DNA from: a virus
Length of the DNA: 64,000 nt
Reading direction: 5' to 3' (one strand)
IMG/VR virus record: IMGVR_UViG_3300027974_000023
Span: 1-64,000 of that record
The first letter of the stretch is position 1, and each line of letters begins with the position of its first letter. The translations under genes and the position numbers were made by a program. This document shows positions 11,111 to 37,084 of the stretch, in pieces. Under the pieces are notes generated by a model. It was given only the letters and a program-made list of their open reading frames with translations, had not been told where the DNA came from and did no database searches.

Positions 11111-11138
11111 GGGAGAGCTTAGGCTCTCCCTTTTTTTT
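11111..11138. terminator. terminator between convergent modules
   Basis: GGGAGAGC-TTAG-GCTCTCCC plus T8 on the + strand; sits between the convergent + and - gene blocks. Confidence 0.85.
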
Positions 11139-11148
11139 CTCCTGAGCT

Positions 11149-14100
11149 TTATCTTACTCTACCAGCACCTTTAGATAAGTTTTTCAATACAGATTCAGGA
11201 TCTCCTGTACCAGCTGTGAAACCAACTGCAGAAAATAATCTTTTCCATATTTTTAACTCATCTTTTTGTTGCCACCAGTATGGTCCAGTATCTTTTTTAA
11301 ATCTTGCTGCTTCATTGAAAGTTAATACATTTAGTATATCACCAAAGATTTCAGTGTATAGTAACAATGTATTTCCAAAAGCAGTAGTAGTAGATGTTAA
11401 CATTTTACCATAATCATCTGCTCCTAAGTTTAAACCAAATACTTTAGGAAGTGGAACAAAGGCTCCTGTTTCAGCTTGTAACCCTAATAATAATAAGAGA
11501 GCATGATTAGCAAGGAATCCATAAGTATTATACTCATCTGTACCAAAAGCACCAGATCTAGCTTTTACTTTTTTCCATTTGTCATCATCATCATCTGTGT
11601 ATCCAAATAACATAGAAGCAAGTAATGCAGTAAACACAATCATCATTCCTTCAGCAGCAAATCTTCTAAAGTCTGCTTTTTCTTGATCGGTCATATACTG
11701 ATAGTTAGCTCCTTTAGATTTTAATATACCCCACATTGTTTGGAATGCAGATATATAAAACCCTTTTGTTGTTTTACCAAGAGCCCAATCATATCTATCA
11801 CCACCAAAGTTTTGTTTAGAAACATCCATACCAAAACGGTTAGCAAACATTGGAGTAAACCATTTTCTCATGAAGAAGAACATACGGTACATAATGTACT
11901 TGTTACCCTCTGGTTGACCAAACTTATCATAAACCCCAAATAGTCTTCTAGAAGTTCCTTGCAATCTATTTTTAAAAAGTTTAAATTTTTCAGATTTAGC
12001 AATTACAATTTCTTGACCATCTTCAAGCTGTTCAACAACTTTTATACTATTTTTTGCTTTTAATTCTTCCAGAGTGATTCCATATTTATCTGCAATTTCT
12101 TGCAAGCTTTCACCTTTAGCATAAGTATGATATACAGATTTGTAATCCCAACCTGGATGAATACCCTTTTTTAACTGAAGAACACCTTCTGCATCTTTTT
12201 CCCATGCATCAGCATATCTTATAAGAGTAGATTTACCATCCGCTCCAACCATATCTATTTTTTGACCATGCAAGAAACTACCAAATAATTTCATAGCAAC
12301 TTCCATCTCACCAAACTTACGGTGCATGAACATCCACTCACCATTTACTAAGTCTTTGTATAAACTTCTTGTAATAGATCTACCAAATTCATCTTCCATT
12401 TTAAATACTGGATCAAATACTTGTACAAGTTGTGTACTTACTGCTCCAGGACCAATCTGATAGATTCCTTTTGTAGTCCACTCTAACATAGCTTTAGTAG
12501 CCCAAGGTGTAGCAATAGCAATATCCTTTAATGTAATAAAGTCACCACCTGCTCCTTCAATAAGAGTTTGGACATAACCAGAATATTTATTTTTTAAATC
12601 TGAAGGAATATTAAGCGTTAATGCAGATTTACTTGATAGCTTAGTAAGTGTGTTTAACCATTTACCTAGTCTTGGGTAGTTTTCTTCAAGACCAATTACA
12701 TTAACACCGTAGTATTCTCTTTCTATTAAAGATCTTACTTGACCTAATCTATTGTTAGCAGCTCCTTTTTTATTTATGTTTTGCAATTGATTTCTTACAT
12801 TAAACTGACCTTTAGAGAACTTCTCTAAATTCTTTGGTTGGTTAGCTGGATCTTCTAAGGTAGAAAGTAAACTTTGCACCAATGGTAATGATTCATTCAG
12901 CTTCCCTTGTGTTTGCAAAGAAAGAGCATACTTAAACATACTTTGTATGATATCAGCATCCGTATCTTTTATATCTAAGTTATAAAGACCTGTTACGGGA
13001 ATGTATGAAACTTCATCTCCTCTTAAATCTGTATTAACCAAGTTGTTTTCCGGATTGTAATTTAAATCATTTTCAAAATCCACTACTGAAGTACCAAACT
13101 GTTGTTTCAACATTGATTTAATACTACCCCAAGCTTCTTTATATCTTTCACCATAAGCACCTCTATTTAAAGCCTGATAGATATCTCCTTTATTTACAGC
13201 AAATCTTGGAACATCTAAATATAACTTACCAAATGTACTTTGACTTTTTTGCATTTCAAGGTGATGTTCTTTCATTGCTTCTAGCAATTGATACTCTGCA
13301 GAATTAGATGCTTTTAAAGCAGCATATCTTTTATCCATGAATTTGTCATCCCTTGCAGAATTTTTTACACCTGGTTGAAAGCTTCTTGGTAAGAAATTAC
13401 CTTTATTGTCTATGTATTTACCAACATAGTTTTCTCTTACATCTTCTCTAGGAATTGTTCTGTATTTATCTTTTACTTCTAATCTAGAATGTCTTGCACC
13501 AGGAACACCAAAGATTTCTATTTTCTCTCCTGTTTCTGTATTATTGATGTATGTCTTAATAAAATGATCAGGATTACTTGGTTTAGTAAATGAATTGGCT
13601 GCAGTTCTTTGAAAAACATTAACCCAATCCTTTGCATCTTTATCATATCTTGTATTCTCAACATGATTCAAATTAAACCAGTCAGCTAATTTTTCATCTT
13701 TTTCTAATAAATCTTGAAAAGTTTCACTGTTTATAAAATCATCAACTGTTAATTCATCTACTTCTTTAATGTTGTACTTAGATAAATGCATATTGATTGC
13801 ATCCAAGTAATATTCTGTAGGAATTTTATTTGACATATCTCTAAGCTCAGCAAATAAAGCATCAAGTTCTACTAATAACTTAGGATCAATCCCACTATCT
13901 TTTTGTTTTTGTAAGAGTCTCATGTACTCTTTACTATCTTCTGGAGTTAATGTTCTTTTCTTAGCTTTATCTGCATAAGAGTTTAACAATTCTGTATCTG
14001 CTTTAGAAAGACCTGACTTACTATCTACATTATTTCTAAAGTTAATAATAGCTTGTTCCATGTCTTTGATTTTTTTTAACCTCTCAACTCCTAATTGACT

Positions 14101-17100
14101 TGTATCAGGTTGTCCAAAATCATCTCGGTAACTATAAATTAAATCACTGATTGTTTTATAAGCAGCACTTACATCAAACTCTGATTTAAATGCATCATTC
14201 ATTTTAGATTGAATTTTAGCTAATCTTGTAAATAATTTAGCTCTTTGTTCATAAAAAGCTGTATCATAAACTACTTTAACATTTTGTTTAAGCCATTCAT
14301 TATACTTTTTATTAAACTCAACTGTTCCGTTTTCAATACCAAGTGTTTTAAGACCAATTATGAATTGATTATAAGAAGTCTCAAGGGATCCCTCAAGGGG
14401 AATAAACTCATAGAAACCGCTTGTAGCTTGTCTATGTTGCTGAAGTACTTTAGAAATAGATAAATCATAAATACCTTTAGAAGGATCATCAAATTTAGCA
14501 GTTCCATCTTCATATAAACTAGAATATAACTGTTTGTATTCTCTGTAAGCGGCTTCAATTTCTCCATAATGTTCAAATCTATCAAGTTCTTTTGTAAACT
14601 GATTGTTCAAGTTATTAAATTTATCAAGAGCTTGTTTTCTTGCTAAGTATGCCAAGTTACCAGCTTCAGACTCTTTAAAGATATCATCTTTTTTATAGTA
14701 CTCTGGAGTGTATTCTTGCCACATATAGTCAGTATTAAACTGTCTTAATGCAGATAATGCTTGAGCCGTTTTTTCTTTATCACCTGATTCTTTTGCTTGA
14801 TCATAGTTGTATTCAAGAATATCTAACTGATATCTCCAACCATTACCAAATTCATTTAAGAAAGTGTAGATTTCTTTTTCTGTTGTCTTACCAGTTTTTT
14901 TATCATAAGTCATTATGGTATCTACACCAGCAACCATATCTCTTACCTGAGTAGAATTTAATTTATTAAAGTTTACTTTTGGTAAAAGCTCTTCTAGTTT
15001 TTTCTGAAACTTAGCTGACTTATGCCATACTTCTGTTTCAACTTCAGTCTTTTGATTCTGAATAAAGTTAGCAAGAGGTCCTGCAATGATATCATTACTT
15101 GAACTATATGTCTCTAACCATCTGTTGAACCAAGAGACATCCTTAGCATGTCCTGTTAAAGCTTTTGTAATTCTGTCTTCATCAACAATGTAATCATTAT
15201 ACTTTTTGATGAACTCATTAAGTCTATCAACAGGAACACCATCTTTTGCTAAAGCTTCAATATCTTCTGTTGTTAATGATTGTGTGGTAACTTTATCTAC
15301 AATGCCTGTAATAACATTCTCAAGATCTTCTGGAGCATAAGCTTTTTGTAATGCAGCTTTTAAGTCTGTGTTTAATTGTTTAATAACAAAGTCATTCATA
15401 TAACTGGTTGCTTCAACAAAAAATTGAACATTGTTCTTCTTGTATATATTAGCAATCTGAGTTTGAATTATGCTTACATTATTTTTAAGCTTATTAAGTG
15501 TTATATAGAATTCACTTGATGTATCAATTTCATCAACATTCAAGATATTGTTAATCTCATCTATGATTGAATCCCAGGCATAAGCAGTGTTTTTATACAA
15601 ATTAACTAAACTAACAATCTGTCTATTATTAATATTGCTTTGAGATAAAATTTTGTTTAAGTCTTTGATAATTAAATCACTAGACATGTCCATCTTATTT
15701 AAACTGTTAACTAAAGCATCAGCTTTAAGTTTAGTTTCAATCATTCTTTTTTCTTCAGCATCTAATACATTATCAATAATTGCAGCTGTATCAAGTATAT
15801 TATCTGTTTCAATATTTTGGTATCCTTTAAGAGTACTTACTACTTCTGGTAATAAACTTGTAGTACCTTCTTTAAAAAGAGTTTGTTTAAGTCTTTCATA
15901 AGTAGGTTTATCTGCACGGAAGTTTCTTGCTTGGTTAAGTAAGATTCTGTTTTGTGCATATACTTCATTTACTACTTTTTGTAAAGACTCTGGTGAAGTT
16001 TTACTTACTAACTCATTAGCTCTTTCAGTAACAAATCTCCCGTACATGACCAAGTCATCCTCAGATATCATGTCTGTAGCAAATTCAAAGTCTTTTTCCA
16101 ATAGCATTTCAGCAAGTTCATCTAATGTAGTATCTACATCTAAGTTTTTTACATTGACTTTTTCACCAAAAATATTACGGAGAAATTGCTTCATTGCTGC
16201 TAAAAGCTTAGTGATAAAAGCATCAAAACCTTTTGACTCTATTTCATTATTAACTCTGTTGGTAGCTTTTAATTGTAAAGCAAATGATAATACTTCTTCT
16301 TTAAAAAGATCATTGCCTACTTCTAACTCTGGATATTCTTTTTCTACATGTGCAAAAAGTGTTTTTCCCTCATCTGTCATCATAAGTTGATTAAACAGAT
16401 TGTTAAACAAAGCAGGGTTGCTTTTTCTTATACCTCCTAATAAAGGGTGAGAAAACTCATGAAGAACAGTTCTAACATTTACATTATCCCCTACTACATA
16501 TACAGTTCCAGCATAATAAAATGCAGCTTCTCCATTATATGGCACCGGTGAGCTTTTCAAGGTTTTCACTGCTTCCTCAGCACTAATGTTAAAATAATTC
16601 ACATTTAATCCTTGTGAAAGCCTTTGAGCTAAAACATCAGCAACTTCTTTTGTTCTTGCACTATTTATAATATCAACATTAATGTCAACTAATGGAATTT
16701 CTTCATTGAAACTTATTTCAAATACTTTTTTTATTAATGCTTCATCTTTAAGATCTTCTAAAGCTCTTTTGTTAATTTCACTTTCATAATCACCTTTTCT
16801 TCTGTTAGGAAAATCTTTATCAAAATCTTCTCTAGAATACAAAGAATGCTGATACTCATGATTAATTACAAAATGTTCCCACTCAATATAATTTTTAAAT
16901 ATATCTTCTGGTAACGCTTGTGCAGAACTTTCAACAATTTCACCATGCAAATTTTCTTTTAATTTTCTTGGTTTAGTCCAAGCTTTTTCTTCAAATTTTT
17001 GCTTTAATAAATTTCTGTTTACTTTTATTATATTATTTGCTCTATTATAACTAGCTGCACCTTTACCACCCTCATAAGAAATAATATCTTCAGTATCTAC

Positions 17101-17430
17101 TACAGGAATTCCTTTATAAGTATTAGAGTTTTCTGTAGTTGCTGGTTTATAATTATTGATCTTATCTTGAAGCTCATTAAACAAATAATCATTTGTATAG
17201 ACCTTTTCAGCATTACTGATAATACTTTTTCTGGTAAACAACAGATTTTTACCTCCTGTTATTAAACCATATTTCTTTTCAGCAAGTTCTGTAAGTTTAT
17301 TTATTTGTTCAAGTAATGTACCTTTTTTTGCTATTTGAGCTCTATCAAGTTCAATTACATTGTTATCAGAATCAATAAAACCTTCATCGGTTAAATACTG
17401 CAGTGTTTTTGCTGTTACTTCACAAGTCAT
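11149..17430 (-). CDS. giant virion cargo protein with two zincin motifs, LysM domain and C-terminal hydrophobic helices
   Basis: 2093 aa; HEYQH (aa 191), HEFSH (aa 324); LysM-like HTYAKGESLQEIADKYGITLEELKAKN; hydrophobic MMIVFTALLASMLFG; adjacent to vRNAP as in crAss-like phages. Confidence 0.8.
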   Translation of the reverse strand: MTCEVTAKTLQYLTDEGFIDSDNNVIELDRAQIAKKGTLLEQINKLTELAEKKYGLITGGKNLLFTRKSIISNAEKVYTNDYLFNELQDKINNYKPATTENSNTYKGIPVVDTEDIISYEGGKGAASYNRANNIIKVNRNLLKQKFEEKAWTKPRKLKENLHGEIVESSAQALPEDIFKNYIEWEHFVINHEYQHSLYSREDFDKDFPNRRKGDYESEINKRALEDLKDEALIKKVFEISFNEEIPLVDINVDIINSARTKEVADVLAQRLSQGLNVNYFNISAEEAVKTLKSSPVPYNGEAAFYYAGTVYVVGDNVNVRTVLHEFSHPLLGGIRKSNPALFNNLFNQLMMTDEGKTLFAHVEKEYPELEVGNDLFKEEVLSFALQLKATNRVNNEIESKGFDAFITKLLAAMKQFLRNIFGEKVNVKNLDVDTTLDELAEMLLEKDFEFATDMISEDDLVMYGRFVTERANELVSKTSPESLQKVVNEVYAQNRILLNQARNFRADKPTYERLKQTLFKEGTTSLLPEVVSTLKGYQNIETDNILDTAAIIDNVLDAEEKRMIETKLKADALVNSLNKMDMSSDLIIKDLNKILSQSNINNRQIVSLVNLYKNTAYAWDSIIDEINNILNVDEIDTSSEFYITLNKLKNNVSIIQTQIANIYKKNNVQFFVEATSYMNDFVIKQLNTDLKAALQKAYAPEDLENVITGIVDKVTTQSLTTEDIEALAKDGVPVDRLNEFIKKYNDYIVDEDRITKALTGHAKDVSWFNRWLETYSSSNDIIAGPLANFIQNQKTEVETEVWHKSAKFQKKLEELLPKVNFNKLNSTQVRDMVAGVDTIMTYDKKTGKTTEKEIYTFLNEFGNGWRYQLDILEYNYDQAKESGDKEKTAQALSALRQFNTDYMWQEYTPEYYKKDDIFKESEAGNLAYLARKQALDKFNNLNNQFTKELDRFEHYGEIEAAYREYKQLYSSLYEDGTAKFDDPSKGIYDLSISKVLQQHRQATSGFYEFIPLEGSLETSYNQFIIGLKTLGIENGTVEFNKKYNEWLKQNVKVVYDTAFYEQRAKLFTRLAKIQSKMNDAFKSEFDVSAAYKTISDLIYSYRDDFGQPDTSQLGVERLKKIKDMEQAIINFRNNVDSKSGLSKADTELLNSYADKAKKRTLTPEDSKEYMRLLQKQKDSGIDPKLLVELDALFAELRDMSNKIPTEYYLDAINMHLSKYNIKEVDELTVDDFINSETFQDLLEKDEKLADWFNLNHVENTRYDKDAKDWVNVFQRTAANSFTKPSNPDHFIKTYINNTETGEKIEIFGVPGARHSRLEVKDKYRTIPREDVRENYVGKYIDNKGNFLPRSFQPGVKNSARDDKFMDKRYAALKASNSAEYQLLEAMKEHHLEMQKSQSTFGKLYLDVPRFAVNKGDIYQALNRGAYGERYKEAWGSIKSMLKQQFGTSVVDFENDLNYNPENNLVNTDLRGDEVSYIPVTGLYNLDIKDTDADIIQSMFKYALSLQTQGKLNESLPLVQSLLSTLEDPANQPKNLEKFSKGQFNVRNQLQNINKKGAANNRLGQVRSLIEREYYGVNVIGLEENYPRLGKWLNTLTKLSSKSALTLNIPSDLKNKYSGYVQTLIEGAGGDFITLKDIAIATPWATKAMLEWTTKGIYQIGPGAVSTQLVQVFDPVFKMEDEFGRSITRSLYKDLVNGEWMFMHRKFGEMEVAMKLFGSFLHGQKIDMVGADGKSTLIRYADAWEKDAEGVLQLKKGIHPGWDYKSVYHTYAKGESLQEIADKYGITLEELKAKNSIKVVEQLEDGQEIVIAKSEKFKLFKNRLQGTSRRLFGVYDKFGQPEGNKYIMYRMFFFMRKWFTPMFANRFGMDVSKQNFGGDRYDWALGKTTKGFYISAFQTMWGILKSKGANYQYMTDQEKADFRRFAAEGMMIVFTALLASMLFGYTDDDDDKWKKVKARSGAFGTDEYNTYGFLANHALLLLLGLQAETGAFVPLPKVFGLNLGADDYGKMLTSTTTAFGNTLLLYTEIFGDILNVLTFNEAARFKKDTGPYWWQQKDELKIWKRLFSAVGFTAGTGDPESVLKNLSKGAGRVR

Positions 17431-17433
17431 TTC

Positions 17434-20400
17434 TTAACATTTAAATGGATCACTTTCAAAACCTAATGCTTGCAGTATTTCTGCATCACTTATATCTTGA
17501 TCACTTAGTTCATTATCTATAGCTGAACCTGGATTTACATATCCAAATTCTTCATACAACCTCTTACTTAAATATACAAATAATTCTTGAGGCATTGAGT
17601 ATGCATTTCCATAACCAGCTTTAGAAAAAGCTACTGATTGATTTTGCATTGCCGTTTTAATGTCTGCAATCTTTCTTTCAACCATTTTTTTGTAGTCATC
17701 ATACTTATCAACAGGGAAAGTTTTCATATTATCACCTGGTTTTAAATCTGTAGGAATTGTTATACTCATTTCACCTGCTAATTTAGCAAATTCAGCTTGA
17801 TTAGTCTCAGGTTTTGCAAACTTAGTTTGTATATCTGTTACAGCAGGATTAGTAATATAGATAACATCTGGATGTTGTTTCAACATATTTCTGTAGTAAT
17901 TAACATCAGCATCTTGATCATTAAAAGTCATCATGTTTTCTACAGAAGTTTCTTCTAGATAATCTTGTTCTTCTACAGCTTCAGTAGCTGGTTGAGTAGC
18001 TTTTTCAAGTCTAACATTTGAATCTATTAAATTACTGTTGTCACTTAACTTAAAAGTTTTAAAATCTAAATTGCTGATATAGTCTTTAAGTCTTCCTTTT
18101 TCAGAACCTCTAGAAATGTTGTTTTGAGTTAGGAATAGGTTATTGAAATCATTTAATACTACCTCACTTGTTGAAGAATCTAACACTTTGATAAATGCTT
18201 CAGATTCTTCTTTTAAGATATTAGCAAAATCTGTGTAATCAACAATACTTGTCAAACTGTATGGAGTTTTATTCAATCCGGATTGGATATAAGCATACAT
18301 TGGAAGTTTGTTAAAGAATTGAGAAATCTCAGTTGCTGCTCCATCTTTGTATCCAAGTTTTCTTAAGTATATCACATCACTTAAGTTTTTAATGTTAGTT
18401 GTGTATAAGTTAGCTTTACTGCTATTTACATCTCTATCATTAAGCTTTAAGTTAGCAATCTTAAGCGTATTCTTATCTCTCAATTCATCATATCCAATTT
18501 TCTTAAGAACTTCAAATCTGTTTGCTAGTCTAGGGTATTTCTCTAAAAGCTCAGTGTATCTTTTTGCATAGTTATTATTCTCATCTTTAAACAAGTGAAA
18601 CAAGTTAAAAGTATTGTCCAAAGCTCTCTCAGCTAAGAATTTTTCATATTCAGCTTTAGTTTCATCTTCTCTTTGAGGGAAGGCACTTCTTAAGTATTCT
18701 CTTTCAGCAACAAATTTTGTATATTCAGATAAGTTACCATTTTTGTTACCAGTGAATGTTCCTGCAGGTAATGGATGAAGACCTAGTTTTTCATAACTGT
18801 TTTCTGCTTCAGATTTAATAGCCCAAGCTTTATCAAGAAACTCTTGTTTTATTCTTGCTTCATCAATGTAAAGAGTACCTTTTTTAACAAAGGCTCCAAT
18901 TACATTTGATTTCATATCCGCTGCAGTCATTTTTGTAGAGTTCAGAGACATGTAGCTATCAGACTTAGTATATTTTCTAATAGCATTTTGCAACAAATAC
19001 ATAACTAAGTCATTTCTGAAAGTAGAGCTAAACAAATCTCTTTTGTTTTCACCTACAGTTTCTTTCATTTCTTGAATGATACTCATTTCTTTGTCCATTA
19101 GATATCTACTGATTGCCTTATGGTATCTTAATTTAAATAAAGGTCTGCCTATTGCAAGGGCCAAAGGACCATTAAAGAAAGAAGATATTACAGAATCTTT
19201 TAAAAACTTTTCTACAAGGTAATTAAGATCTTCATTTTCTGCTAAATTTTCTAAGTTAGATTCAGTTTGTTCAACACCCGCAATTACAGATTTTAAACTT
19301 GTATCAGGATTAGTATTCATTTTAACCTGAGCTATTCCTTTTATCTGATCTTCTATCTGTAAGAAATGTAAGAACATTGCTTTAGAAAGTTCACTGTTTG
19401 CCACAGAAGGATCTTTTTTGTAATCCTTAATCAATTTATACATCTCATCTTGAGAAAATTGTTTATCTCCTACAGCTTCCACTGCTGCTTGATAAATTTT
19501 ATCAGATGCATTTTTGTTAAATGAATATCCAAAACGTCTGCTTAATATGTTTTTAGCTGCATTTATTTTAACACCACCAAATTTTGGAACTTTGTGTAAC
19601 ACTTCAGCATAAGCAGAAGTAATTTCTCTTTGTTCTTTTACATACTCTCTTACTAAAGGTTGTGACACAAAGTAAATAGCTTCTTTGATTGGAACACCTG
19701 CTTTTGCTAAATAAGTAAGTATAGGAGCAACTTCATAGTTACCCTGGATAAAGAATATCCATGCATCTTTTTCAACATCTACCCAGCCATTCATTGCTTG
19801 AGAAAAGATATCTGCAATTTTATTATAGTTATCTGCATCATATCTGTTAGAAAGAGAAATTCTTTTTTCTCCATTAACATCCATTGAATTATGTCTCAAA
19901 GCAAGATTAACTTTTTTAATTATCTCAGCACCTTTGTATTGAGCTGGCATGTAAGCTCCAATTGAATTAAAGAGTACATTGAATGTGTTTTCAATAGCAC
20001 CTAGACCAAGGGTTTTCTTACCTACAATGTTTGACTCATGCTTAAAGATATTATAAGCATTCTCTAATACTCTTGTTGGACTGATCATATCCTTATTTTT
20101 CTTGTTTTTTTGACCTTCAGTCATAAAAGTTTCAAAACGGTTATAATCCATTACATATTGAGATAAATCATCAGCAATCTCTTTAAGTAAGAAAGTACCA
20201 TTTGGTGTAATTAGAGATACATAATTACTTGGTAGCTCAAGAATTTCTTTGATGTCTTTAATTAATTCATTCTCTAAACCAGCTTTTTGAGTTTTGAATA
20301 AAGCTTCAGTTGATTCACCTTTAGCATTAAGCTCAGCTATTTGTTTTTTAATCCATTCATTGCTTTCATAGGTTTTTTCTTTAAGCTTACCAGTCTTGTC

Positions 20401-26400: not shown

Positions 26401-27261
26401 CTTATTTTTAAAAAGAAGTCTATTAGTGTCACTTAACTGAGGTTTTCTTATAGTTTGATAGATTATTCTACCATCTTGTGGATTTTCAGTAATCTCACCA
26501 TTTTCTTTAAAATAAACTGGTGAACCATCTGTGTATGTTACAACTCCATAAAGTTCAGTATCTTCTCCTTTATAATATGCTTTATCAGATTCCAATCTAT
26601 AATCATCTGGAAACTGATTAGCTCTCATTATAGTAAGACCAAGTTCTTTACCAGCATAAGTAACAGTATCATCTTCATTTCTGTTCTTAGCAAAATAAAC
26701 TATGTCTCTAATTACTTTGTAAAATAAAGCTTTCTCAGGATCTTTTACATTTTTTTCTGATGTAGTTGATGGATTTACTGCAATTGCTTCTTGACCTGTT
26801 GTAAACATTGGAAATAAAATCCTTGCTGCAGATTTTTGATATTCAGCAACTTTTTCTTCAGGAAGTTCTTCATATGAAACATCTTCCTTATGGTTTAAAA
26901 TATCAGTAACTGTGTCTTCAATTTCATCAGGTGTTATAGGAGCAGGATTTACATAAGTATTTACAGTTTCTAAATTTTCAAAATCTGAACTTAAATCTGC
27001 TAAGGCATCAAAACTAAACTTACTTTGTCTTAGTTTTTTTCTTATTTCTGAATCATTTCCAACCAAATAAAAAATATCAGGAACAGCTTGTGCATATTGT
27101 AAAGCTTTACCTGTATCTTCTGTAGCTTCTAGAACTATTTTATAAAGTTGTTTTATCAATCCCTCTAAATCAAAACTTTCCAAAGTATCAGCTCCAGAAA
27201 GTTTTTTATAAATTAATTGATAAACATCACCAATTTGCTCTTGGGTAAGTGAACATGCCAT
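17434..27261 (-). CDS. virion-associated two-barrel RNA polymerase (crAss-like vRNAP) with zincin domain
   Basis: 3275 aa; catalytic GGDFDIDKL (nt 20428-20442) preceded by VRIPVQGLNSM; HESWH...EEAIAEDF zincin at aa 764. DFDID is the motif known from phi14:2 gp66-type polymerases. Confidence 0.9.
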   Translation of the reverse strand: MACSLTQEQIGDVYQLIYKKLSGADTLESFDLEGLIKQLYKIVLEATEDTGKALQYAQAVPDIFYLVGNDSEIRKKLRQSKFSFDALADLSSDFENLETVNTYVNPAPITPDEIEDTVTDILNHKEDVSYEELPEEKVAEYQKSAARILFPMFTTGQEAIAVNPSTTSEKNVKDPEKALFYKVIRDIVYFAKNRNEDDTVTYAGKELGLTIMRANQFPDDYRLESDKAYYKGEDTELYGVVTYTDGSPVYFKENGEITENPQDGRIIYQTIRKPQLSDTNRLLFKNKSGYAYQLLDAESIVEREQKELGTDYSKAAFDTRVNEIKKAQQMQMNQLFALRKYVSETGKAIVTPITGGSFGAYEKVPAPKSIKSFTELSEADLKSYEYHPKTGYVSFDYSTETPGGKIDQTVYLKSDMDETLAAKIADVLTSKGKLNGEEFSGADKRTFFEVFVYNTTITDGEPSSIEVVLNSNKELVVKIKGKAIPENVLYSEEGKQIIKEALLKGKVKKNKQGNITGTYPLNVHYNKTYKDKPFTDYEINGDKVIAKEMSHFDAIKPYMKIQYTGDTNAYYNGLNAYLGFSLPADLPADFPNVPNFGISVFKPADKIKTPIKTEEPKTDLPAKPSVSRTITKPAADKVIIEDRTPGIPDIQTRSAIINTPSTKTSEKIDFDKLDRKKSVSNFLDRVFTNKADRERAEKWWKNSPLNKDSEANKEKERLSPGSTKNLISLKRITEVVNSDAFATFTGSGITLYQADGGTAVDLYHESWHAFSQLFLTKDEKIKLYNELRTNKKWAKADYIDIEEAIAEDFRSYAKSKGKKEAPKGFLGEVFKRIYAFLRNMFAKVKTTEMATRPRDIESVRELYDMLYRASATPDIFQNLKANAENMMFTQLNRLKDNIVPVKTAAKDFAPFTIDESVLMTNTIDNIIADVFENYNLDRQTSTGPVKFLRSTNNRVILYKNVKAELDNLWKLKVAQFESIVNSNLAKDELSDEDIITEENALAKIELLNKTIESFGDPELSVTGQQKTGVIAFHLANSKFKLLNDTFTESLEDPTIIKSDSGNTINSKDLASIETVTVLSSLFKIARNENNKIITNDNGYVYEVDEFGFKQLEDYNNNWNRLAKVLEGSFDKNEMYDRIEANKENYPEFIQLLTLLPAKDSEKYSDKIAFNTITKFWQDLKKPRIRYNQLNINRVTDEKGNITNEARVSTSAFDIQSVVKDWQYSFTLADAGVSDFIDKETKFGRNLLNVEAVIKAFYDPQTKGLKTGKDVPLKFLNAIGIKLDQGSPVIKELTADKNFSREYGLQYIFDALQQVYINRAEPKAYEFALNPVKNLLDGLDESLKMDKTKAGDVRSRIKKLAELQVQNSDAYSNFAALSPEKNRVWEHFVDNTITRVVTSLNYGKNWQELTRDDADPNNKFQHMRWLSVDNNTYTQFSKLINSMYDIKTGEKKKNALSIYNMAGTQVIGENDSSTTGVSTASMDATSKFLQEMHTMLLQGLEEFMRHASKQSAMGLTAKNGIQTYADKKASKLYVDIEAFEGNPTYGESKAFDILVGYLSGEANRIFRFQSDSKFENWAGYNRPVKRKDGKGTETMAGAAFTAFDDVLTEDTQADLYAIIDKASKSKDAKFNMFDILSDNVDLRLKVKADVVKYFNALTKQSQSMLDEAKYIDNGLLSRVDSKLKPSEKETALLKAYNYNSWIHKFETAIIAYGDFAQYNHEKEEFHKRNAGLGSGGGGFGVDLKDQQYVNALEKVYVNTLNQKRKDKGLDLIIPRDYTGTLDTAIIKEREENSIYFNEYREALIADYTDRLKDARQAEKLADIALGEYNGMKIGDGQGHITIEAYRNLKNLEGKWSDEQEELYKKVSRGEDVTIEDVIKYFPPYKLQYFGNMKTEGLTLTSFHKFSLAPIVPGVAKEGTPLYDLHEKMLVDGIDYVLFESGSKVGHIGTGDNIFNADNSINKDAVFTKNTIFAEYLKNQTEMNESYKGKSIFSTQMRKLILDGLYEQGVITTKNDKAITSDIVNKYLNDVSEYTELLKLELLNEIGYNETTPGEYTPKDAESIGKLLMLIRDNLEREDALSDDIISFIDATKTGELVNDLSFHPEAGKIEKLLLSLINKRVIKQKVKGEPLIQVSSALYENNFTGMPTFENPTDEEKKKWLGTNGLPTYHKRADGKTAAMKVMIALQGDYANLLNLEYNGQIIGDIKTLNRAVKDDTWLDANDGANRKAITLVGVRIPVQGLNSMEFMEVYEFLPPQAGNIIIPPAEIVAKSGGDFDIDKLTIFMTNIDKTGKLKEKTYESNEWIKKQIAELNAKGESTEALFKTQKAGLENELIKDIKEILELPSNYVSLITPNGTFLLKEIADDLSQYVMDYNRFETFMTEGQKNKKNKDMISPTRVLENAYNIFKHESNIVGKKTLGLGAIENTFNVLFNSIGAYMPAQYKGAEIIKKVNLALRHNSMDVNGEKRISLSNRYDADNYNKIADIFSQAMNGWVDVEKDAWIFFIQGNYEVAPILTYLAKAGVPIKEAIYFVSQPLVREYVKEQREITSAYAEVLHKVPKFGGVKINAAKNILSRRFGYSFNKNASDKIYQAAVEAVGDKQFSQDEMYKLIKDYKKDPSVANSELSKAMFLHFLQIEDQIKGIAQVKMNTNPDTSLKSVIAGVEQTESNLENLAENEDLNYLVEKFLKDSVISSFFNGPLALAIGRPLFKLRYHKAISRYLMDKEMSIIQEMKETVGENKRDLFSSTFRNDLVMYLLQNAIRKYTKSDSYMSLNSTKMTAADMKSNVIGAFVKKGTLYIDEARIKQEFLDKAWAIKSEAENSYEKLGLHPLPAGTFTGNKNGNLSEYTKFVAEREYLRSAFPQREDETKAEYEKFLAERALDNTFNLFHLFKDENNNYAKRYTELLEKYPRLANRFEVLKKIGYDELRDKNTLKIANLKLNDRDVNSSKANLYTTNIKNLSDVIYLRKLGYKDGAATEISQFFNKLPMYAYIQSGLNKTPYSLTSIVDYTDFANILKEESEAFIKVLDSSTSEVVLNDFNNLFLTQNNISRGSEKGRLKDYISNLDFKTFKLSDNSNLIDSNVRLEKATQPATEAVEEQDYLEETSVENMMTFNDQDADVNYYRNMLKQHPDVIYITNPAVTDIQTKFAKPETNQAEFAKLAGEMSITIPTDLKPGDNMKTFPVDKYDDYKKMVERKIADIKTAMQNQSVAFSKAGYGNAYSMPQELFVYLSKRLYEEFGYVNPGSAIDNELSDQDISDAEILQALGFESDPFKC

Positions 27262-27264
27262 ATC

Positions 27265-30200
27265 TTAACAGTATTTAGCGTTAGTTTGAATCTTACTGAT
27301 TATCTCATCTTCTGATTTGTTATCAGTCTCTTTTTTTAATTTACTAATTTCTTCAGTATTTTCTGAGAATTTTAAAAAATTCTCATGAGATTCTTTAGAA
27401 TTTGCTACATCTTCTTGTGTAACTATTGGTGCATTCATGTTTTCCACAGCTTCTTTAGTTGTTTTAATGAACATTTCTTTCATTTCCTCTTCTGTAAATG
27501 TTTTTGTTTCATCTGTCATTGAGTCCTTAACAATCACATTGTTGCCTTTGACTTGTGTTACAAAAACAAATTCATTTTCATAGTTTGTAAAGATAGGAAC
27601 TTTAGCCATCAATAACTCACCAACTTCAAGATTATCAACAGAAATTTTTGTTTTTAATTCATATTGTTTAGCTGCATATGCATCAGCAATTTCTGATGCT
27701 AATTCGGGATTATCAATAAGAGCTTCTGCTGTTAATTTACCAAGTTCAGTCATGTTTTTAGCTTTACTGAAATCCATTATAGGATTTTTAGCAGTTTCTT
27801 CATCTAACAATTCTTCATCAGTAACTTTTGTAGAATTGATTATTTCTCCAAGTTCTTCTTCTGTTGCGGGTTTAACCTCAGGTGAGCTTTCCCCCATTGA
27901 AGAACTTGTTGTCATTGAAATAGCAGAATCTACTCTAACTATACCAGCGTTTTCAATCTCTGGTAAATATTCTAAATCATAAACATTTTGATCTTCAGCA
28001 AGTAATGAAGATTTTTTAATACTAGTTATTTTACCATCAAGATTTGCTTCAAATTCAATTGGTAATATAGATATGTCAGGAGTAATACCAGTCATGTTAT
28101 ACACCAATGTTTGATAAATAGATTGCTGAGCTCTATGCTCTAGTTTTCTACGGTTATTTTCTTTTTCATAAGATTTCCAAGTAGAACCAGAAGAAAGTTT
28201 GATATCAATAATCTTTAATTTACCATCAGTTGTTAATGCAAGTAAATCTAACTCACCTGTAATACCATTTTCTCTTAAGGATTTGTCAAACACAAGAACA
28301 TTGTTAGATAGTATTCTAAGTTTGTTATCAAATATGTCATTTAACAGTGGAGCAATGATACCAGTATTTGCATCAAACAATGCATCATATGCATCCTTAG
28401 TCATTATATCTGATACCCTAACTCTTTGCCCATTAATATCAATTGAGTCTGTATATGGTACTGCTTTAAATTTAATTTCATCATTAGAAATAGAAAGTGA
28501 TTCTCTAATTAAAGCATCTGCATTTGTTCCTGCTGTGCTTCTGTGATTAAAAGCAATATTATCAAGAGCTTTTAAAAATTCTTCTTTTGGTAAGTCTAAA
28601 GCTTTTTCTACCTGATCTAATTTTGTTGCATTAGTACCAAAGGTTCCTCTAAATTCTGCTGCTCTTTTTTGAAATGCTAACATGAATTGGTTAATAGGAT
28701 CTGTTACAGTAGGGTCATTAAAAATCCTATCATACATTTCTATTATTGTTTCATATTTACTTTCATTGATAGGAGTAAAGAAATAATCTGGTTTACCAAC
28801 CATTTTAGTTACAACCTCATCAGATACTTGAGTAGCTCTTAAAGGTGTGTTTTCAGAATCAACAAATTTTCTACCTGTCTTAACACCTTCTTCATTAAAT
28901 ACATCTTCTACTTCTCCTCTTCTATTTACAATGTTTTGTTCTACATTGTTATAAGTTTCTTGAGCAATATTTTGTGGTTTATAAACTTGTTTTCTGCTGT
29001 TTATATAACCTTTTAAAGCCTCAATGTCTTCTTTAATAAGGGCAAGTTCATCAGCTGTAGCTTCAATAGTTTTAGATTTTGAATTTAAAAACTTACCAGT
29101 GTCAACAATTTTCTGAAGATTTTTTAAATAGTCTGTTAAAGTATTTAGAGCATCTTTTCCTGATACTTGTAATTTGAAAAATTTTAAGAATGGTGGTCTG
29201 GCAAGTTCCTTAGCGCGTTCAACTGCCTCAGCTCTTGCCTTCTCACCATAAGCTTTAAATAATTTAGTTTGACTTTGCAACCAGTTAGCTCTTGTACGTT
29301 CAAAATTTTCTGGATTAGTTTGTTGTAAATTTGGATCTTCTAATTGTTCAGTAAGAAACTTTGCAAACTCTTCATCAACCATGGCTTTTAACCCTTCTGG
29401 TAAATTTTCATAAGGAGTAGCTGTAGTTACTTCTTCATAAGTATTTTCATCAACACCTTGTTCTTTAAATTCATCTTTTACTTCTTGAACAAAACCATCA
29501 TATTTTTCATTGATCTGGTTTACATCACTTTGGTATGCTAAATACTCTGGAAAAGCTTCAATATCAAAAGTCTCAGGAGACTTAACATTTTTAATTTGCT
29601 CCTCAAGATCTTTAATGTTGTTCTCAAGGATGTTTTTATATACTTCAATTGTAAATGCATTATTTATAGCATCAGCTTTTTCCTGTGGTGTTTGAGCATC
29701 AGGATTAAAAATAGGACCTCTTTTTCTTGCTTTTTCAATTATAGTTTTATCAGAAGCTGCTATAGTCTGAGCATCATTGAAGCTTTCTTCAGATACAAGC
29801 TCTTCCAATTTAGGATAGATGTCAATCATTCCTTGAACAGTGTCTCCATTCAGGATGTTCAAATAAACTTCTTGTTCTTCTTTTTGAATTTCTAATGCAA
29901 CTATTTCTTCTCTTGAAGTATCTTCATTTAAAGTTTTTCTTATATCATCAAATATACCTGCCTCATCTTTACCATAAGCTTTTACTAATTCTCTATTATA
30001 ATTTTCATTAGCATCTTCTAAGTCTTTACTTCTTCTTTCTTCAATATCATCAAGTCTATCTTGCATTTTTTCTTTCTCAGATACCGGATTACCCGCAGCT
30101 GGAATTGCATTCATATTTGTTGCATCAATGAAAAGATCTAAGTAGTCAGCATAAAGAGGGCTGTTTTGGTTGATGATCATACCTCTTGTTTCATCAATAA

Positions 30201-33200
30201 AGTATTCTGGATAATTATTATTATCCTGAGCCCAATTTGCAAACTGCTCTAAATCAACATATATACCTTGATCAGCTAAAGCATTAAGTAAAGCATTTCT
30301 TTCAATAGCTGCCATTTGCTCATTTACAATAGACTGAAAATATTCTTTTCTGTTATTGTAAAGATTTTGCATCCATTCATAGTTTTTATCTACATGCTCT
30401 AAGAAATCTTTTGGATCACTTAATAAGTTAACATATTTAGCAAGACCTGCAGCTTGATTCTTTAACATGTCAGTATCTAAAAGCTCATCAAATAAAACAT
30501 CAATACCACCCTTTGCACTTATATCATTATCAAGATTCATTTGCTTCTCAGGAGTACCTGCTAAACCTTTTAATAAATCATGATAACTAGCTTTGTAATC
30601 CTCAATTGGATCACTTGCATATCTTTTATATAATTCTTCTTCCGGTAAGAGAGCTGTATCTAATACATATTGTCTTAATACTTTTTGCTTTTTTTGAAAG
30701 TCCTCCACAAGTTTCATTGTCTTCAAGTCCTTTCTCACATTATCCATGATTTGTGGATCATTTGATTCTTTAGCAAATGTAATTTGAGAAGCCAACATTT
30801 GAATTTGGTTATTCAATCTTGACGGATCAGTTAGTAAAGCAACATCAGCAAAAGCATTTCCTGTAATTGAAGATATGTCAGCTAAACCACTGTATAGTTT
30901 ATTACTTCTTTTTAAAGTATCATCAAAAGCAGATTGCATAAAAGTCAGGTTGTTTATACCTATACTGATTGCTTTGTTATAAAACTCAGCTCTTTGTCTT
31001 TCTATAGTTCCTTCTTTATACTCTGCAGGATTTACTCTGTATTTACCAAACTTATCTTGAGCAAACTGAAATCTTTTTGCAATAACTTTTGCATTATCAA
31101 TTGCTTTGTCTAGTTTTTGTAATGCTTTTGCACCTTGACCAGGCTCTAAGCTCCAAGCTTCTTCTAACTCTTCAGGTGTTGCAGATTTGTAATCAGCAAA
31201 GTTTTTAATAAAAGTATCAAAGGTTCCTGTTTGTAATGCTGTTAAGACAGATGAAGTAAAAGCTTGATGACCTGCATCTTTTATTTCTGCAGTAGTTTTA
31301 TCATCTGAATTATCAACAACTTTACCAACCAGCATTTGATCTGAATAATTATTCAGTTTAGGATCAAAAAAGTATTTACCATTTTGATGCATTGTATTTA
31401 ATGCTTCAACAATCTGTGTACCTTGTGCTTGTTTATTTGCTATGTATTCATTGTAATTATCTTTATGCTTAAAGTATTTATTATAACCAACACTACCAAA
31501 TTTTTGTACAGTATTTATTGGACCAGAAATTAAACTACCCATTAAGAAACCAGAAGCAAATACTTCTGCTCCTTGAGCACTTAATTGATCTTTAATACCT
31601 GCTCCAATAGCACCTAATGCATATCTATAGTTCTTTAATGCTGGGTTGTTATAACTACTTACATAGTAATCTTCTGTTGCTTTTGATAAAGCTTCTTGAC
31701 CAACTTCTTGAAAACCTTCAACTAAATTAGCTTTGAAATAATTACCTGCAAGTTTTCCCCATTGTTTTGGGCTCTTTAAAGCTTTCAGTGAGTTTTTAAT
31801 ACTAACATCTTCTAGAGTATAAGCAGCCTCTGCAGCTTTCTTACCTGGATTAAATATGATTTGTTTCTCTCTACCTACAGTTCCAATAACTCCTCCAAAC
31901 TTAGGGATACCTTTTAAGAAACCAGCTCTTGTAATAGAAGGAAAAGCAATTTTATTTGAATAGAATACTAATCCAGTATTCCACATTGTATTAGCAAAAC
32001 CATTATCTTTTGCTTGTTGCATCATTCTTACCTGCTCATCATCAGAAGGAACTTCTCCAGTTTTTGCATAATGTTCATCATACAGTTTTTTGTAAGTTGC
32101 TTGTTCTGAAAAACCACCTTCAAGCCTACCTTCAGATAAAGCCATGTTAATATTTTTAACATCATGCCAGAAAGCACCAACAGATCTAGCAGAACGTGCT
32201 AAACTTGTTATGTCTCCCATATCTTTCCAACCTCTGATTAAATCAGTTGTATTATCTAAAGGATTTAATCCATTTGCTAATTTACTACCAGCATTTGTCC
32301 AAAAACTTTTTGCACTACTTATGTTAGACAAACTTTTCAAAGAACTTGCAATTTTACCCATGTTCTTAGCTGTGTTAAACAAAGCTCCTGGTAATTTTGC
32401 TAAACTTTTTACTGTACCTGTAATACCACCAATTGCCGCTCCTGGAATAGCTCCAAAACCACCTTCAGCAAAACCCACAGCTCCTCCAATAATTGCACCT
32501 TCAACTAATCCTTCTGCAAGAATACCTACAGAATAAGCAGCTGAATTTTGCAAGTTAGTCATGAATCCTCCAAGACCACCTTTGGTAGAATTACCAATAG
32601 CATTAAAGTACTCATAATCTCTTGCTTCTTGCTGATTAGCTCCAACATCACCATGACCTAGCATTTTAGCATATGAATTAACAGGACTCATAAATCCTAA
32701 TTTAATCATTGGCCAAGCAGCATGAGTCATCATTCTTTTCCAGTCATCAAACTGAGTTGTATTTTGATTATACCATGTTTCTGTATCTGAAGTTGGATCA
32801 AAACCTAGTTTATTATATGTCTTTTCTCCATATCCACTATATCTTGCTTTGAAGGAACCACTACCAGGAGAGTTATCAAATGAATACATTTTACCATATG
32901 CATTTGGATCATGAGAATTATTAAATAAATTCTGCATGAAATCTGCTTGAGCTTTACTACTTGTACCAGGTGTAGCAACTCTTTGATTTAATTTTGCAGA
33001 ATATGTGGGAGATGAACCTACAGTAAAATCCTTAGTAGCATAAGTTCTATTTGGAATACTTGATCCACCAGGTAATTGTTGTATATCTGTTGGTAATGGA
33101 GCTAAAGGTGTATATTCTGTAAGTCCTGATTTTACTGGTCCTGTAAATGTATTAATATCCGTTAACCCATTTAATCCATCTTGTGGTATAGTGTTTTCTG

Positions 33201-33204
33201 CCAT
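27265..33204 (-). CDS. giant virion cargo protein with Gly-rich membrane segment and PD-(D/E)XK nuclease-like domain
   Basis: About 1979 aa from MAENT; GAIIGGAVGFAEGGFGAIPGAAIGG hydrophobic stretch; GITGELDLLALTTDGKLKIIDIK...HRAQQSIY. Confidence 0.78.
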   Translation of the reverse strand: MAENTIPQDGLNGLTDINTFTGPVKSGLTEYTPLAPLPTDIQQLPGGSSIPNRTYATKDFTVGSSPTYSAKLNQRVATPGTSSKAQADFMQNLFNNSHDPNAYGKMYSFDNSPGSGSFKARYSGYGEKTYNKLGFDPTSDTETWYNQNTTQFDDWKRMMTHAAWPMIKLGFMSPVNSYAKMLGHGDVGANQQEARDYEYFNAIGNSTKGGLGGFMTNLQNSAAYSVGILAEGLVEGAIIGGAVGFAEGGFGAIPGAAIGGITGTVKSLAKLPGALFNTAKNMGKIASSLKSLSNISSAKSFWTNAGSKLANGLNPLDNTTDLIRGWKDMGDITSLARSARSVGAFWHDVKNINMALSEGRLEGGFSEQATYKKLYDEHYAKTGEVPSDDEQVRMMQQAKDNGFANTMWNTGLVFYSNKIAFPSITRAGFLKGIPKFGGVIGTVGREKQIIFNPGKKAAEAAYTLEDVSIKNSLKALKSPKQWGKLAGNYFKANLVEGFQEVGQEALSKATEDYYVSSYNNPALKNYRYALGAIGAGIKDQLSAQGAEVFASGFLMGSLISGPINTVQKFGSVGYNKYFKHKDNYNEYIANKQAQGTQIVEALNTMHQNGKYFFDPKLNNYSDQMLVGKVVDNSDDKTTAEIKDAGHQAFTSSVLTALQTGTFDTFIKNFADYKSATPEELEEAWSLEPGQGAKALQKLDKAIDNAKVIAKRFQFAQDKFGKYRVNPAEYKEGTIERQRAEFYNKAISIGINNLTFMQSAFDDTLKRSNKLYSGLADISSITGNAFADVALLTDPSRLNNQIQMLASQITFAKESNDPQIMDNVRKDLKTMKLVEDFQKKQKVLRQYVLDTALLPEEELYKRYASDPIEDYKASYHDLLKGLAGTPEKQMNLDNDISAKGGIDVLFDELLDTDMLKNQAAGLAKYVNLLSDPKDFLEHVDKNYEWMQNLYNNRKEYFQSIVNEQMAAIERNALLNALADQGIYVDLEQFANWAQDNNNYPEYFIDETRGMIINQNSPLYADYLDLFIDATNMNAIPAAGNPVSEKEKMQDRLDDIEERRSKDLEDANENYNRELVKAYGKDEAGIFDDIRKTLNEDTSREEIVALEIQKEEQEVYLNILNGDTVQGMIDIYPKLEELVSEESFNDAQTIAASDKTIIEKARKRGPIFNPDAQTPQEKADAINNAFTIEVYKNILENNIKDLEEQIKNVKSPETFDIEAFPEYLAYQSDVNQINEKYDGFVQEVKDEFKEQGVDENTYEEVTTATPYENLPEGLKAMVDEEFAKFLTEQLEDPNLQQTNPENFERTRANWLQSQTKLFKAYGEKARAEAVERAKELARPPFLKFFKLQVSGKDALNTLTDYLKNLQKIVDTGKFLNSKSKTIEATADELALIKEDIEALKGYINSRKQVYKPQNIAQETYNNVEQNIVNRRGEVEDVFNEEGVKTGRKFVDSENTPLRATQVSDEVVTKMVGKPDYFFTPINESKYETIIEMYDRIFNDPTVTDPINQFMLAFQKRAAEFRGTFGTNATKLDQVEKALDLPKEEFLKALDNIAFNHRSTAGTNADALIRESLSISNDEIKFKAVPYTDSIDINGQRVRVSDIMTKDAYDALFDANTGIIAPLLNDIFDNKLRILSNNVLVFDKSLRENGITGELDLLALTTDGKLKIIDIKLSSGSTWKSYEKENNRRKLEHRAQQSIYQTLVYNMTGITPDISILPIEFEANLDGKITSIKKSSLLAEDQNVYDLEYLPEIENAGIVRVDSAISMTTSSSMGESSPEVKPATEEELGEIINSTKVTDEELLDEETAKNPIMDFSKAKNMTELGKLTAEALIDNPELASEIADAYAAKQYELKTKISVDNLEVGELLMAKVPIFTNYENEFVFVTQVKGNNVIVKDSMTDETKTFTEEEMKEMFIKTTKEAVENMNAPIVTQEDVANSKESHENFLKFSENTEEISKLKKETDNKSEDEIISKIQTNAKYC

Positions 33205-36443: not shown

Positions 36444-37084
36444 TATAAATATATTAAGTTTGTATTATTTTTTCTCTTACCTAAGAGTCTTCTAGATAAT
36501 TCATATTTTGGTATATTCAATATATCAGAAGCAACTCTAAGTGATTCATATATTTCTCCAGTAATTGTATTTTTTACCTGTTTTCTTTTAATACTATGTA
36601 CTTTATAGAAATCTACATTTTTTAATTTTTCTCTAGCTTTAGCTAAATTTATTTTGCATTCTTCTGAATGATTATATTTTTTACCTGCTTCATAACAGTT
36701 AGGATGTAATTTTTTACCTTTAAAATGTTGTCTAAGTTTTTCTTTTGTTTCTTCTGAATGTAAAGAACAACCGTCTGGATCAGTAGGTTTTAAGTTATAA
36801 CCTATTTCTCTATCTAAACAACTATAATAGTCAACCCAAAAATGTTCTTTTTCATGTAAAAGATCTGTGTCACATAACTCAACAACTTCAAACTTAAAAT
36901 TTAATTCTCCATATTTATTCCAAGCATGTTGTAAGTAATCATTCTTGTGAACACCTTTTCTTAAATCATATAAATGACCATTTTTTCTTGTTCTGATATT
37001 TGAAGCACATCCAATATAAATCTTATTATTAACAAGATTAGTAATCTTGTATATACCAGGTGAAGATTGTAAGTACGTTGCCAT
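36443..37084 (-). CDS. GIY-YIG homing endonuclease (NUMOD3)
   Basis: PGIYKITNLVNNKIYIGCA; GYNL; HSEETKEKLR. Confidence 0.92.
   Translation of the reverse strand: MATYLQSSPGIYKITNLVNNKIYIGCASNIRTRKNGHLYDLRKGVHKNDYLQHAWNKYGELNFKFEVVELCDTDLLHEKEHFWVDYYSCLDREIGYNLKPTDPDGCSLHSEETKEKLRQHFKGKKLHPNCYEAGKKYNHSEECKINLAKAREKLKNVDFYKVHSIKRKQVKNTITGEIYESLRVASDILNIPKYELSRRLLGKRKNNTNLIYL

Follow-up and report, generated by a model that had tools for sequence, protein, structure and literature searches.

Why should three giant, consecutively encoded phage proteins carry cysteines only at the ends that face one another? This question is raised by a 64,000-nucleotide stretch of viral DNA, positions 1 to 64,000 of the IMG/VR record IMGVR_UViG_3300027974_000023 (128,825 bases in full; the stretch is hereafter called the window), where consecutive giant open reading frames (ORFs) on the minus strand encode proteins A, B, and C of 1979, 3275, and 2093 amino acids (aa), respectively. 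Comparison of these genes with their relatives revealed pairs of cysteines that accompany the protein boundaries and disappear where the genes are fused. The facing ends probably dock, with their thiols forming a disulfide bond, such that the separate proteins would act as one thread, like the Cys-free fused polyproteins of other lineages. The three genes and their two junctions, here called seams, are the following:

27265..33204, minus strand: protein A, 1979 aa, in the position of gp67 of phage phi14:2 and gp47 of phage crAss001
17434..27261, minus strand: protein B, 3275 aa, a crAss-type virion RNA polymerase according to clade-profile matches
11149..17430, minus strand: protein C, 2093 aa, in the position of phi14:2 gp65 and crAss001 gp49, with HExxH motifs and a LysM domain
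27253..27270, minus strand: A/B seam, TGT TAA GAT ATG GCA TGT, read as Cys, stop, a 3-nucleotide (nt) spacer, and Met-Ala-Cys
17422..17439, minus strand: B/C seam, TGT TAA GAA ATG ACT TGT, read as Cys, stop, a 3-nt spacer, and Met-Thr-Cys

The first-pass annotation of the window, made by eye, had counted four cysteines across the three proteins. Translation yields exactly this number in 7347 residues, with no internal Cys overlooked. The sole Cys of A is its last residue (...AKYC*), B has Cys only at residue 3 (MAC...) and at its very end, residue 3275 (...PFKC*), and the sole Cys of C is residue 3 (MTC...). The outer ends, that is, the N terminus of A and the C terminus of C, are free of Cys in the translations, as had been stated; the terminal peptides had been quoted correctly, and the likeness that had been seen between the two C-terminal ends and between the two N-terminal ends is genuine but modest. 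The 37 largest nonoverlapping ORFs of the window contain 249 Cys in 20,596 residues; after subtraction of A, B, and C, 245 Cys remain in 13,249 residues, or about 1.85%. Among the 104 ORFs of the full record, Cys occurs at residues 3 to 6 in 7, including B and C, and within the last 8 residues in 9, including A and B. The chance that four randomly placed cysteines fall one in each of the 3-residue inner ends is 24 x (3/7347)^4, or ~7e-13. Given the count of four and these background rates, the observation is exact and far from chance, and chance was rejected as the source of the pattern.

Paired cysteines in the window's clade and across Crassvirales

Relatives of the window were collected from IMG/VR using a five-sequence alignment of the last 900 residues of B; the best 80 of 164 confirmed loci formed 60 clusters at 90% identity, and one representative of each was analyzed. 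Junctions were defined as consecutive ORFs of at least 300 aa and were scored for Cys in the last 10 residues of the upstream protein and the first 8 of the downstream protein. Cys was present on both sides of 98 of the 108 junctions, and the remaining ten include no true exception. The single junction with only an upstream Cys (L084) is a start codon artifact, the true start reading MPC; in all six junctions with only a downstream Cys, which belong to a distant clade, a different, Cys-rich ORF follows C; and the three junctions with Cys on neither side comprise one break inside B (L019) and two cases of the gene after C. Elsewhere in these proteins, Cys is rare. The 119 proteins or fragments of at least 1000 aa in the 60 loci contain 187 Cys in 321,806 residues, 153 at the termini and 34 at internal positions; internal Cys is absent altogether from 95 of the 119. 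The internal frequency is thus 0.0106% (34/321,806), compared with the ~1.85% in the rest of the window. Additional members of the chain, found in L025 (396 aa), L063 (1325 aa and 318 aa), and L065 (574 aa), have Cys at both ends, and the free ends, the N terminus of A and the C terminus of C, never have Cys in the complete proteins seen.

Two further features of these relatives were noted. In the distant clade L081-L094, many polymerase proteins of 4000 to 4700 aa have one internal Cys ~72 to 83 residues before the DFDID catalytic motif (residue 3073 in L081, for example), which is not found in L083, L089, L090, or L092. In G003 (L004:3622-4476), a 284-aa ORF with 4 Cys separates the polymerase from the protein that follows it.

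The seam sequences, with their 3-nt spacers, place A, B, and C of the window in one frame, and both junctions are nearly identical. This resemblance could be taken for a signal at the nucleotide level, either a coupling or read-through motif of the form TGT-TAA-GAN-ATG-NCN-TGT or a set of in-frame ORFs read as one polyprotein. In the clade, however, the spacers of Cys/Cys seams vary from -17 to +757 nt, and just 24 of the 98 seams, fewer than the one-third expected by chance, are in frame. The offsets of the cysteines vary as well, from 1 to 8 residues from the C-terminal end and from position 3 to position 7 at the N-terminal end: among the paired junctions, 43 have the C-terminal Cys as the final residue, 41 as the penultimate one, and 14 deeper in the protein, and the N-terminal Cys occupies position 3 in 62, 4 in 19, 5 in 12, 6 in 4, and 7 in 1. 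In crAss001, moreover, one partner gene lies on the other strand. Spacers, frames, offsets, and strand switch together contradict a DNA-level or read-through explanation, to which we assign next to no probability. The in-frame junctions seen in the window characterize its lineage and may reflect translational coupling, without explaining the cysteines. Separately, intein-like or native-ligation chemistry was rejected by reasoning, given that A has no Cys besides its last residue and that the Cys of B is never residue 1.

The wider comparison depends on the identity of B, which the first-pass annotation had named a virion RNA polymerase (vRNAP). This name is borne out. Residues 2273 to 2278 of B read GDFDID, and the surrounding motif is kept in every listed homologue of B. 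A profile of 59 window-clade sequences matches phi14:2 gp66 (4.5e-57) and crAss001 gp50 (1.9e-49), and with a 13-sequence profile of the same clade, the only match in the PDB is 6vr4_A, the phi14:2 virion RNA polymerase (E value of 6.9e-50). Homology is demonstrated via profiles because phmmer searches of A, B, and C against the proteins of phi14:2, crAss001, and Lbo-JY46 yielded no pairwise match. Likewise, neither B alone nor A alone matches a PDB sequence, C alone retrieves only weak LysM-type rows there, Pfam and PHROGs return nothing for the three proteins except a LysM domain in C, and tblastn with the last 900 residues of B found no match among GenBank phages. On these profile matches, B is a crAss-type vRNAP of the phi14:2 gp66 family. 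Proteins of the RNA polymerase block have been reported in the virions of phi14:2 and crAss001 (phi14:2 bioRxiv preprint; PMC10172136), and by analogy B would be packaged in the virion and ejected.

Protein C is less readily placed by direct comparison: there is no Pfam peptidase match in it and no direct match to gp65 or gp49. The link is made by polyproteins encoded in other genomes (L177 and L178), the same C-terminal part of which is matched both by a window-clade C protein (L075) and by gp49-like proteins (L144 and L101). C thus appears to match the gp65/gp49-type zincin-like proteins associated with the RNA polymerase (RNAP); gp65 orthologues carry a zincin-like domain according to the phi14:2 bioRxiv preprint. 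In the record as a whole, PHROGs identify the major capsid protein, portal, and terminase, and the portal is 22 to 34% identical to portals of crAss-like phages, the best being that of Leptolyngbya phage Lbo-JY46. From the polymerase profiles and the portal, the record is therefore assigned to a distant crAss-like phage, with A-B-C, its RNA polymerase cargo block, corresponding to phi14:2 gp67-gp66-gp65 and crAss001 gp47-gp50-gp49. The motifs and domain that underlie these assignments are as follows:

20428..20442, minus strand: DFDID catalytic motif of B, residues 2274-2278
16447..16461, minus strand: HEFSH (HExxH) of C, residues 324-328, a motif only; a second HExxH, HEYQH, is at residue 191
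12001..12117, minus strand: LysM domain of C, residues 1772-1810 (PF01476; E value of 2.1e-05; 24.8 bits against a cutoff of 20.9)

A second search, with the catalytic regions of crAss001, phi14:2, and the window, covered Crassvirales. Among the best 80 of 460 confirmed loci, 73 have a polymerase ORF under translation table 11, and these form 44 clusters. The clusters exclude L132, L140, L149, L159, L160, L162, and L163, which have no DFD[IV]D[KA] ORF under that table; by eye, L132, L149, L159, L160, and L162 follow the same rule, and L140 and L163, whose ORFs are broken, are uninformative. At the seam between the polymerase and the next protein, both cysteines are present in 37 of the 37 clusters with both ends available, counting L130 after correction of its start to MAKKC. 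Together with the window's clade, this is the survey that the first-pass annotation had proposed, and the co-occurrence of a C-terminal Cys with an N-terminal Cys in the next gene holds in both sets. At the other end of the polymerase, an N-terminal Cys is present in 33 clusters, in 26 of which a Cys-ended partner ORF, upstream or convergent, was found at the locus and in 7 of which none was found; a Cys-ended partner accompanies none of the 10 clusters in which the polymerase lacks the N-terminal Cys. The cysteines are hence neither unconserved nor independent of a partner: the two are present together in 26 clusters and absent together in 10. In L129, L133, L150, and L164, crAss001-like polymerase genes are broken by 0.9 to 1.3 kb with no Cys at the break, which fits introns or other inserts, not separate proteins.

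The same counts bear on the idea that each terminal Cys binds not the neighboring giant protein but a third partner, such as the portal, the capsid interior, another cargo protein, or a host factor. There is so far no direct sight of any partner, and the seven clusters with no Cys-ended A-type protein at the locus could be read in this sense. Yet no cluster has a Cys-ended partner without an N-terminal Cys in B, the free ends do not carry Cys, and the extra chain members carry it at both ends; binding to a third partner is accordingly rated very unlikely.

The pattern is also found in named phages, and the equivalents of A in phi14:2 and crAss001 likewise contain one Cys, at the C terminus or close to it. 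The phages are given here in the order upstream partner, polymerase or middle protein, downstream partner:

phi14:2: g067 ends in ..TIC; g066 has Cys 3 and Cys 2179 of 2180; g065 has Cys 3
crAss001: gp47 has a single Cys, 2339 of 2341; gp50 has Cys 5, 1334, and 2404 of 2412; gp49 has a single Cys 5
Lbo-JY46: 1552-aa protein with a single Cys, the last residue; no polymerase identified; 2748-aa protein with a single Cys 4
Fpv2: no upstream partner seen; gp33 has a single Cys, 4400 of 4401; gp34 begins MAC
Carjivirus: upstream partner ends in ..FSCM; the first Met of the polymerase reads MSC; downstream partner not present

Although the crAss001 gene for gp47 lies on the other strand from those for gp50 and gp49, gp47 ends in ..RCNS and gp50 begins MSKRC. 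The pattern persists despite the change of strand, which argues for pairing at the protein level in the order A-B-C. To this extent, the initial suggestion of a pairing in gene order is supported. Two further observations concern these phages. The Cys-tipped 1552-aa protein of Lbo-JY46 is followed by a 2748-aa HExxH protein (L097 17354-30260), and DFDxD was found in neither; its chain may therefore lack a recognizable polymerase. The Carjivirus record (L183:25358-26625) has two genes annotated as thioredoxins within a few kb of the polymerase block, and phage thioredoxins might conceivably act on the seams.

Fusions and splits of the three genes offer a contrast. Two polyproteins, of 5636 aa (L177) and 5542 aa (L178), contain gp47-type homology, DFDxD, and gp49-type homology in that order and have zero Cys. 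A third, of 5005 aa (L180), also has zero Cys; it was judged an A-B-C fusion by length alone, and phmmer gave no A-type or C-type match for it. Fusions of the A+B type (n = 7) keep only the B/C pair. In five of these (L143, L146, L169, L173, and L179), A-type homology lies upstream of the catalytic motif with no seam Cys, and the ORF upstream of the fusion has no terminal Cys. A Cys near the C-terminal end is the sole one in L146, L173, and L179 and is accompanied in L143 by another at residue 1104; the 3' end of L169 is open. Profiles of the C-terminal 500 residues of A and the N-terminal 500 residues of B had no match in the distant clade L081-L094, so that A+B fusion, which the 4000- to 4700-aa proteins of this clade may represent, is demonstrated only for the other fusion group.

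Conversely, splits add cysteines. In L025, the C gene is divided into two pieces, of 396 aa and 2232 aa, which match residues 1 to 352 and 378 to 2446, respectively, of the undivided C of L019; a new Cys pair stands at the break, whereas the unsplit C has Cys 3 only. Similarly, a 574-aa module that is inside C in other lineages stands alone in L065, with Cys at both ends. Losses in fusions and gains in splits indicate that the Cys pairs track protein boundaries and not sequence positions. The split of L025 also comprises ~650 nt of extra DNA and 172 extra N-terminal residues (13983-14631); this extra DNA and that at the G003 seam may be mobile elements landing there (L025:13983-14631; L004:3622-4476).

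The proposed link between facing ends

The paired cysteines suggest the following scheme. The C-terminal tail of each protein would dock onto the N-terminal part of the next, and the facing cysteines would form an interprotein disulfide, A-S-S-B-S-S-C. By virtue of these bonds, the three polypeptides would behave as one thread of ~7350 residues, equivalent to the single Cys-free polyproteins (5000 to 5600 residues) of the fused lineages. The remaining cysteines would have been eliminated, preventing mispairing, as in ejection proteins of the N4 type. Such a link would most likely serve copackaging and coupled ejection; that the proteins are then freed by reduction in the cytoplasm is speculative. 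We also put forward, tentatively and as the less probable extension, that the polymerase cargo throughout Crassvirales and related phages constitutes a "virtual polyprotein" in which disulfide seams replace peptide bonds wherever the genes are cut, producing a covalent thread of 5000 to 8000 residues that would be packed and then pulled through the tail, with reduction in the host cytoplasm freeing and activating the polymerase.

The nature of such a link can be weighed from the ends themselves. In 42-sequence alignments, the sole invariant column in the last 200 residues of B is the Cys, and the same holds for the first 200 residues of C; beyond the Cys, the terminal peptides are conserved within clades. 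Because the comparative evidence fits any link between two thiols, the facing cysteines might instead share a metal ion, such as Zn, Cu(I), or Fe, making the chain coordinate and not covalent, and such a bridge could form in the reducing cytoplasm during assembly. However, there is one conserved Cys per end, with no invariant His, Asp, or second Cys column adjoining it, and the sole solved seam of this kind, that of cyanophage A4, is a disulfide. A metal bridge thus seems unlikely.

The conserved terminal peptides are also compatible with docking that involves no bond, the Cys having a different role at the seam, for instance in sensing redox state or metal to time release or activation, or as a target of thiol modification. 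Structure prediction touches on this point as well. Modeling of the terminal pairs had been proposed in the first-pass annotation; for the one pair run, the last 200 residues of B with the first 200 of C (42-row alignments), the complex scored 0.48 (0.49, 0.44, and 0.48 in the individual runs) against 0.00 for the best of 3 controls. Of 80 solved complexes, 58 reached the mark applied to such predictions, as did 2 of 110 mismatched pairs; at scores of 0.60 or less, however, only 7 of the 80 did so, along with both of the passing mismatches. The runs share at least 46% of contacts, and the pLDDT of the partner is at least 73. The prediction thus leans weakly toward docking, as a bond-free association would also require. 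Against docking of this kind stand the conservation of the cysteines as the only residues kept across all clades and the true S-S bond of A4, and we regard it as quite unlikely.

Several points weigh against the disulfide-linked thread. In the seven clusters mentioned above, the polymerase has an N-terminal Cys with no Cys-ended partner found at the locus, and in L147 the directly upstream ORF has no terminal Cys. Some gut lineages have many internal cysteines (23 in L139 and 19 in L147), a poor fit with a strict argument that Cys was purged to avoid mispairing. The cluster and junction counts come from related loci and do not represent independent events. The B-end/C-start prediction provides weak support, with no contacts reported. 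B, having Cys at both ends, could in principle cyclize or polymerize, which puts the specificity of the seams in question. The bacterial cytoplasm is reducing and gut phages live anoxically, and it is thus questionable whether and when the thiols would oxidize. The end-to-end link of crAss-like phages is a prediction from sequences, and phmmer of gp25 to gp29 from the record of phage A-4L, the phage called A4 above, against all collected sequences of the A, B, and C families gave 0 matches, which makes the A4 precedent an analogy.

The rule that emerges, whereby each protein boundary has a Cys pair and fusions have none, yields a concrete prediction for the cultured phages phi14:2, crAss001, Fpv2, and Lbo-JY46. 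If the proposed disulfide seams are real, they would account for the free splitting and fusing of the three cargo genes in Crassvirales, the most abundant human gut viruses. The rule is also of use in annotation, where it helps to locate true protein boundaries and start codons in fast-evolving cargo genes: three apparent oddities (L084, L130, and L037) were traced to wrongly assumed starts.

The rest of the record

Upstream of A lies a gene outside the Cys-tipped chain:

33210..36443, minus strand: upstream 1077-aa protein, no Cys

This protein is probably further cargo; the G001 homologue has a single internal Cys and no terminal Cys. Zero Cys is also found in neighboring ORFs of 676 aa and 497 aa. 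Between the Cys-free 1077-aa gene and the gene for a 965-aa protein (window 37144-40041, minus strand) lies a 213-aa ORF with 6 Cys (window 36443-37084, minus strand); it starts MATYLQ and the next gene starts MSTYLQ. The 965-aa protein has only four Cys, in a CxC...CxxC cluster at residues 670 to 694, and its G001 homologue has at least 8 Cys at the same place, which may be a metal site in a virion protein.

About 20 nt past the C stop codon lies a G+C-rich hairpin (GGGAGAGC..GCTCTCCC, then GTTTC; window 11111-11130, minus strand) that looks like the terminator of the cargo operon. Outside the window, the large terminase ORF (1091 aa; record 75664-78939; L095:11664-14939, minus strand) has terminase matches in two parts, 58-490 and 490-866, the second of which also matches primase and DnaC-like P-loop families; its length is unusual, and an insertion is possible. 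Finally, 390-aa ORFs at 1044-2216 and 125171-126343 have the same first and last residues (MSKSVQLN...VKMAVK), and neighboring ORFs recur too, at either end of the record. The 128,825-base record probably repeats its ends, and the real genome would therefore be a few kb shorter.

Comparison with known systems

The closest counterparts of the block are phi14:2 gp67-gp66-gp65 and crAss001 gp47-gp50-gp49, which have the same order, the polymerase in the middle, and the same Cys pattern. They differ in lacking a pairwise phmmer match to A, B, and C, and the portal of the record is only 22 to 34% identical to crAss-like portals. Virions of crAss001 contain gp47, gp49, and gp50, and other disulfides hold its tail and a portal-vertex protein (PMC10172136); in the available text of that paper, the word "cysteine" occurs 0 times, and cysteines of the cargo proteins are not mentioned. 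The phi14:2 bioRxiv preprint describes the three cargo proteins as fused in some phages, and its available text contains 0 occurrences of "cysteine," "disulfide," or "Cys." PDB searches returned no relative of crAss001 gp47 or gp49 and, for gp50, only 6VR4. No mention of the Cys-pair pattern was found in the available text of the 2021 survey of crAss-like genomes or of the 2026 N4 paper (PMC13434306), nor was a description of terminal Cys pairs in crAss-like phages found in the literature searched. The first-pass statement that such a link had not been described accordingly holds for crAss-like phages within that literature; the principle itself has been published for A4, for one seam.

In the cryo-electron microscopy structure of cyanophage A4 (PNAS 2025; PMC12002296), a C-terminal helix of gp27 lies in a cleft of gp26, and Cys1715 and Cys5 form a disulfide. 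As in the block studied here, the genes for these preejectosome proteins of A4 (Anabaena phage A-4L; Saffermanviridae) are consecutive, and a C-terminal Cys faces an N-terminal Cys: gp27 (1717 aa) and gp26 (1114 aa) of the A-4L record contain one Cys apiece, located three residues from the end of the former and at residue 5 of the latter. A, B, and C show the same layout of an upstream C-terminal Cys and a downstream N-terminal Cys in otherwise Cys-poor proteins. A4, however, has one seam and no RNA polymerase, whereas the crAss-like block is a chain of two or more seams. In the available text of the A4 paper, the bond is given as a structural detail of one phage and not as a rule for gene splits and fusions.

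The N4-like phages (Schitoviridae) provide the second parallel, a giant virion RNA polymerase that is ejected into the host. Suppression of Cys has been described in the N4-like ejection operon, and the N4-type vRNAP is described as a Cys-free single polypeptide (PMC11445570); being a single chain without seams, it has no terminal Cys pairs. Its polymerase fold differs from that of the crAss type (PMC13434306). Proteins of the A, B, and C families likewise have Cys far below the proteome level. The disulfide seam, from the one example of A4, and the suppression of Cys in ejection proteins were thus already known; what appears to be new in the literature searched is the generality of the pairs across Crassvirales, the multiseam chain with a polymerase in its middle, and the rule for fusions and splits. 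If the disulfide-linked thread proves true, it would tie the crAss block conceptually to the single-chain N4 polymerase and widen the single disulfide of A4 into a general way of building ejection trains.

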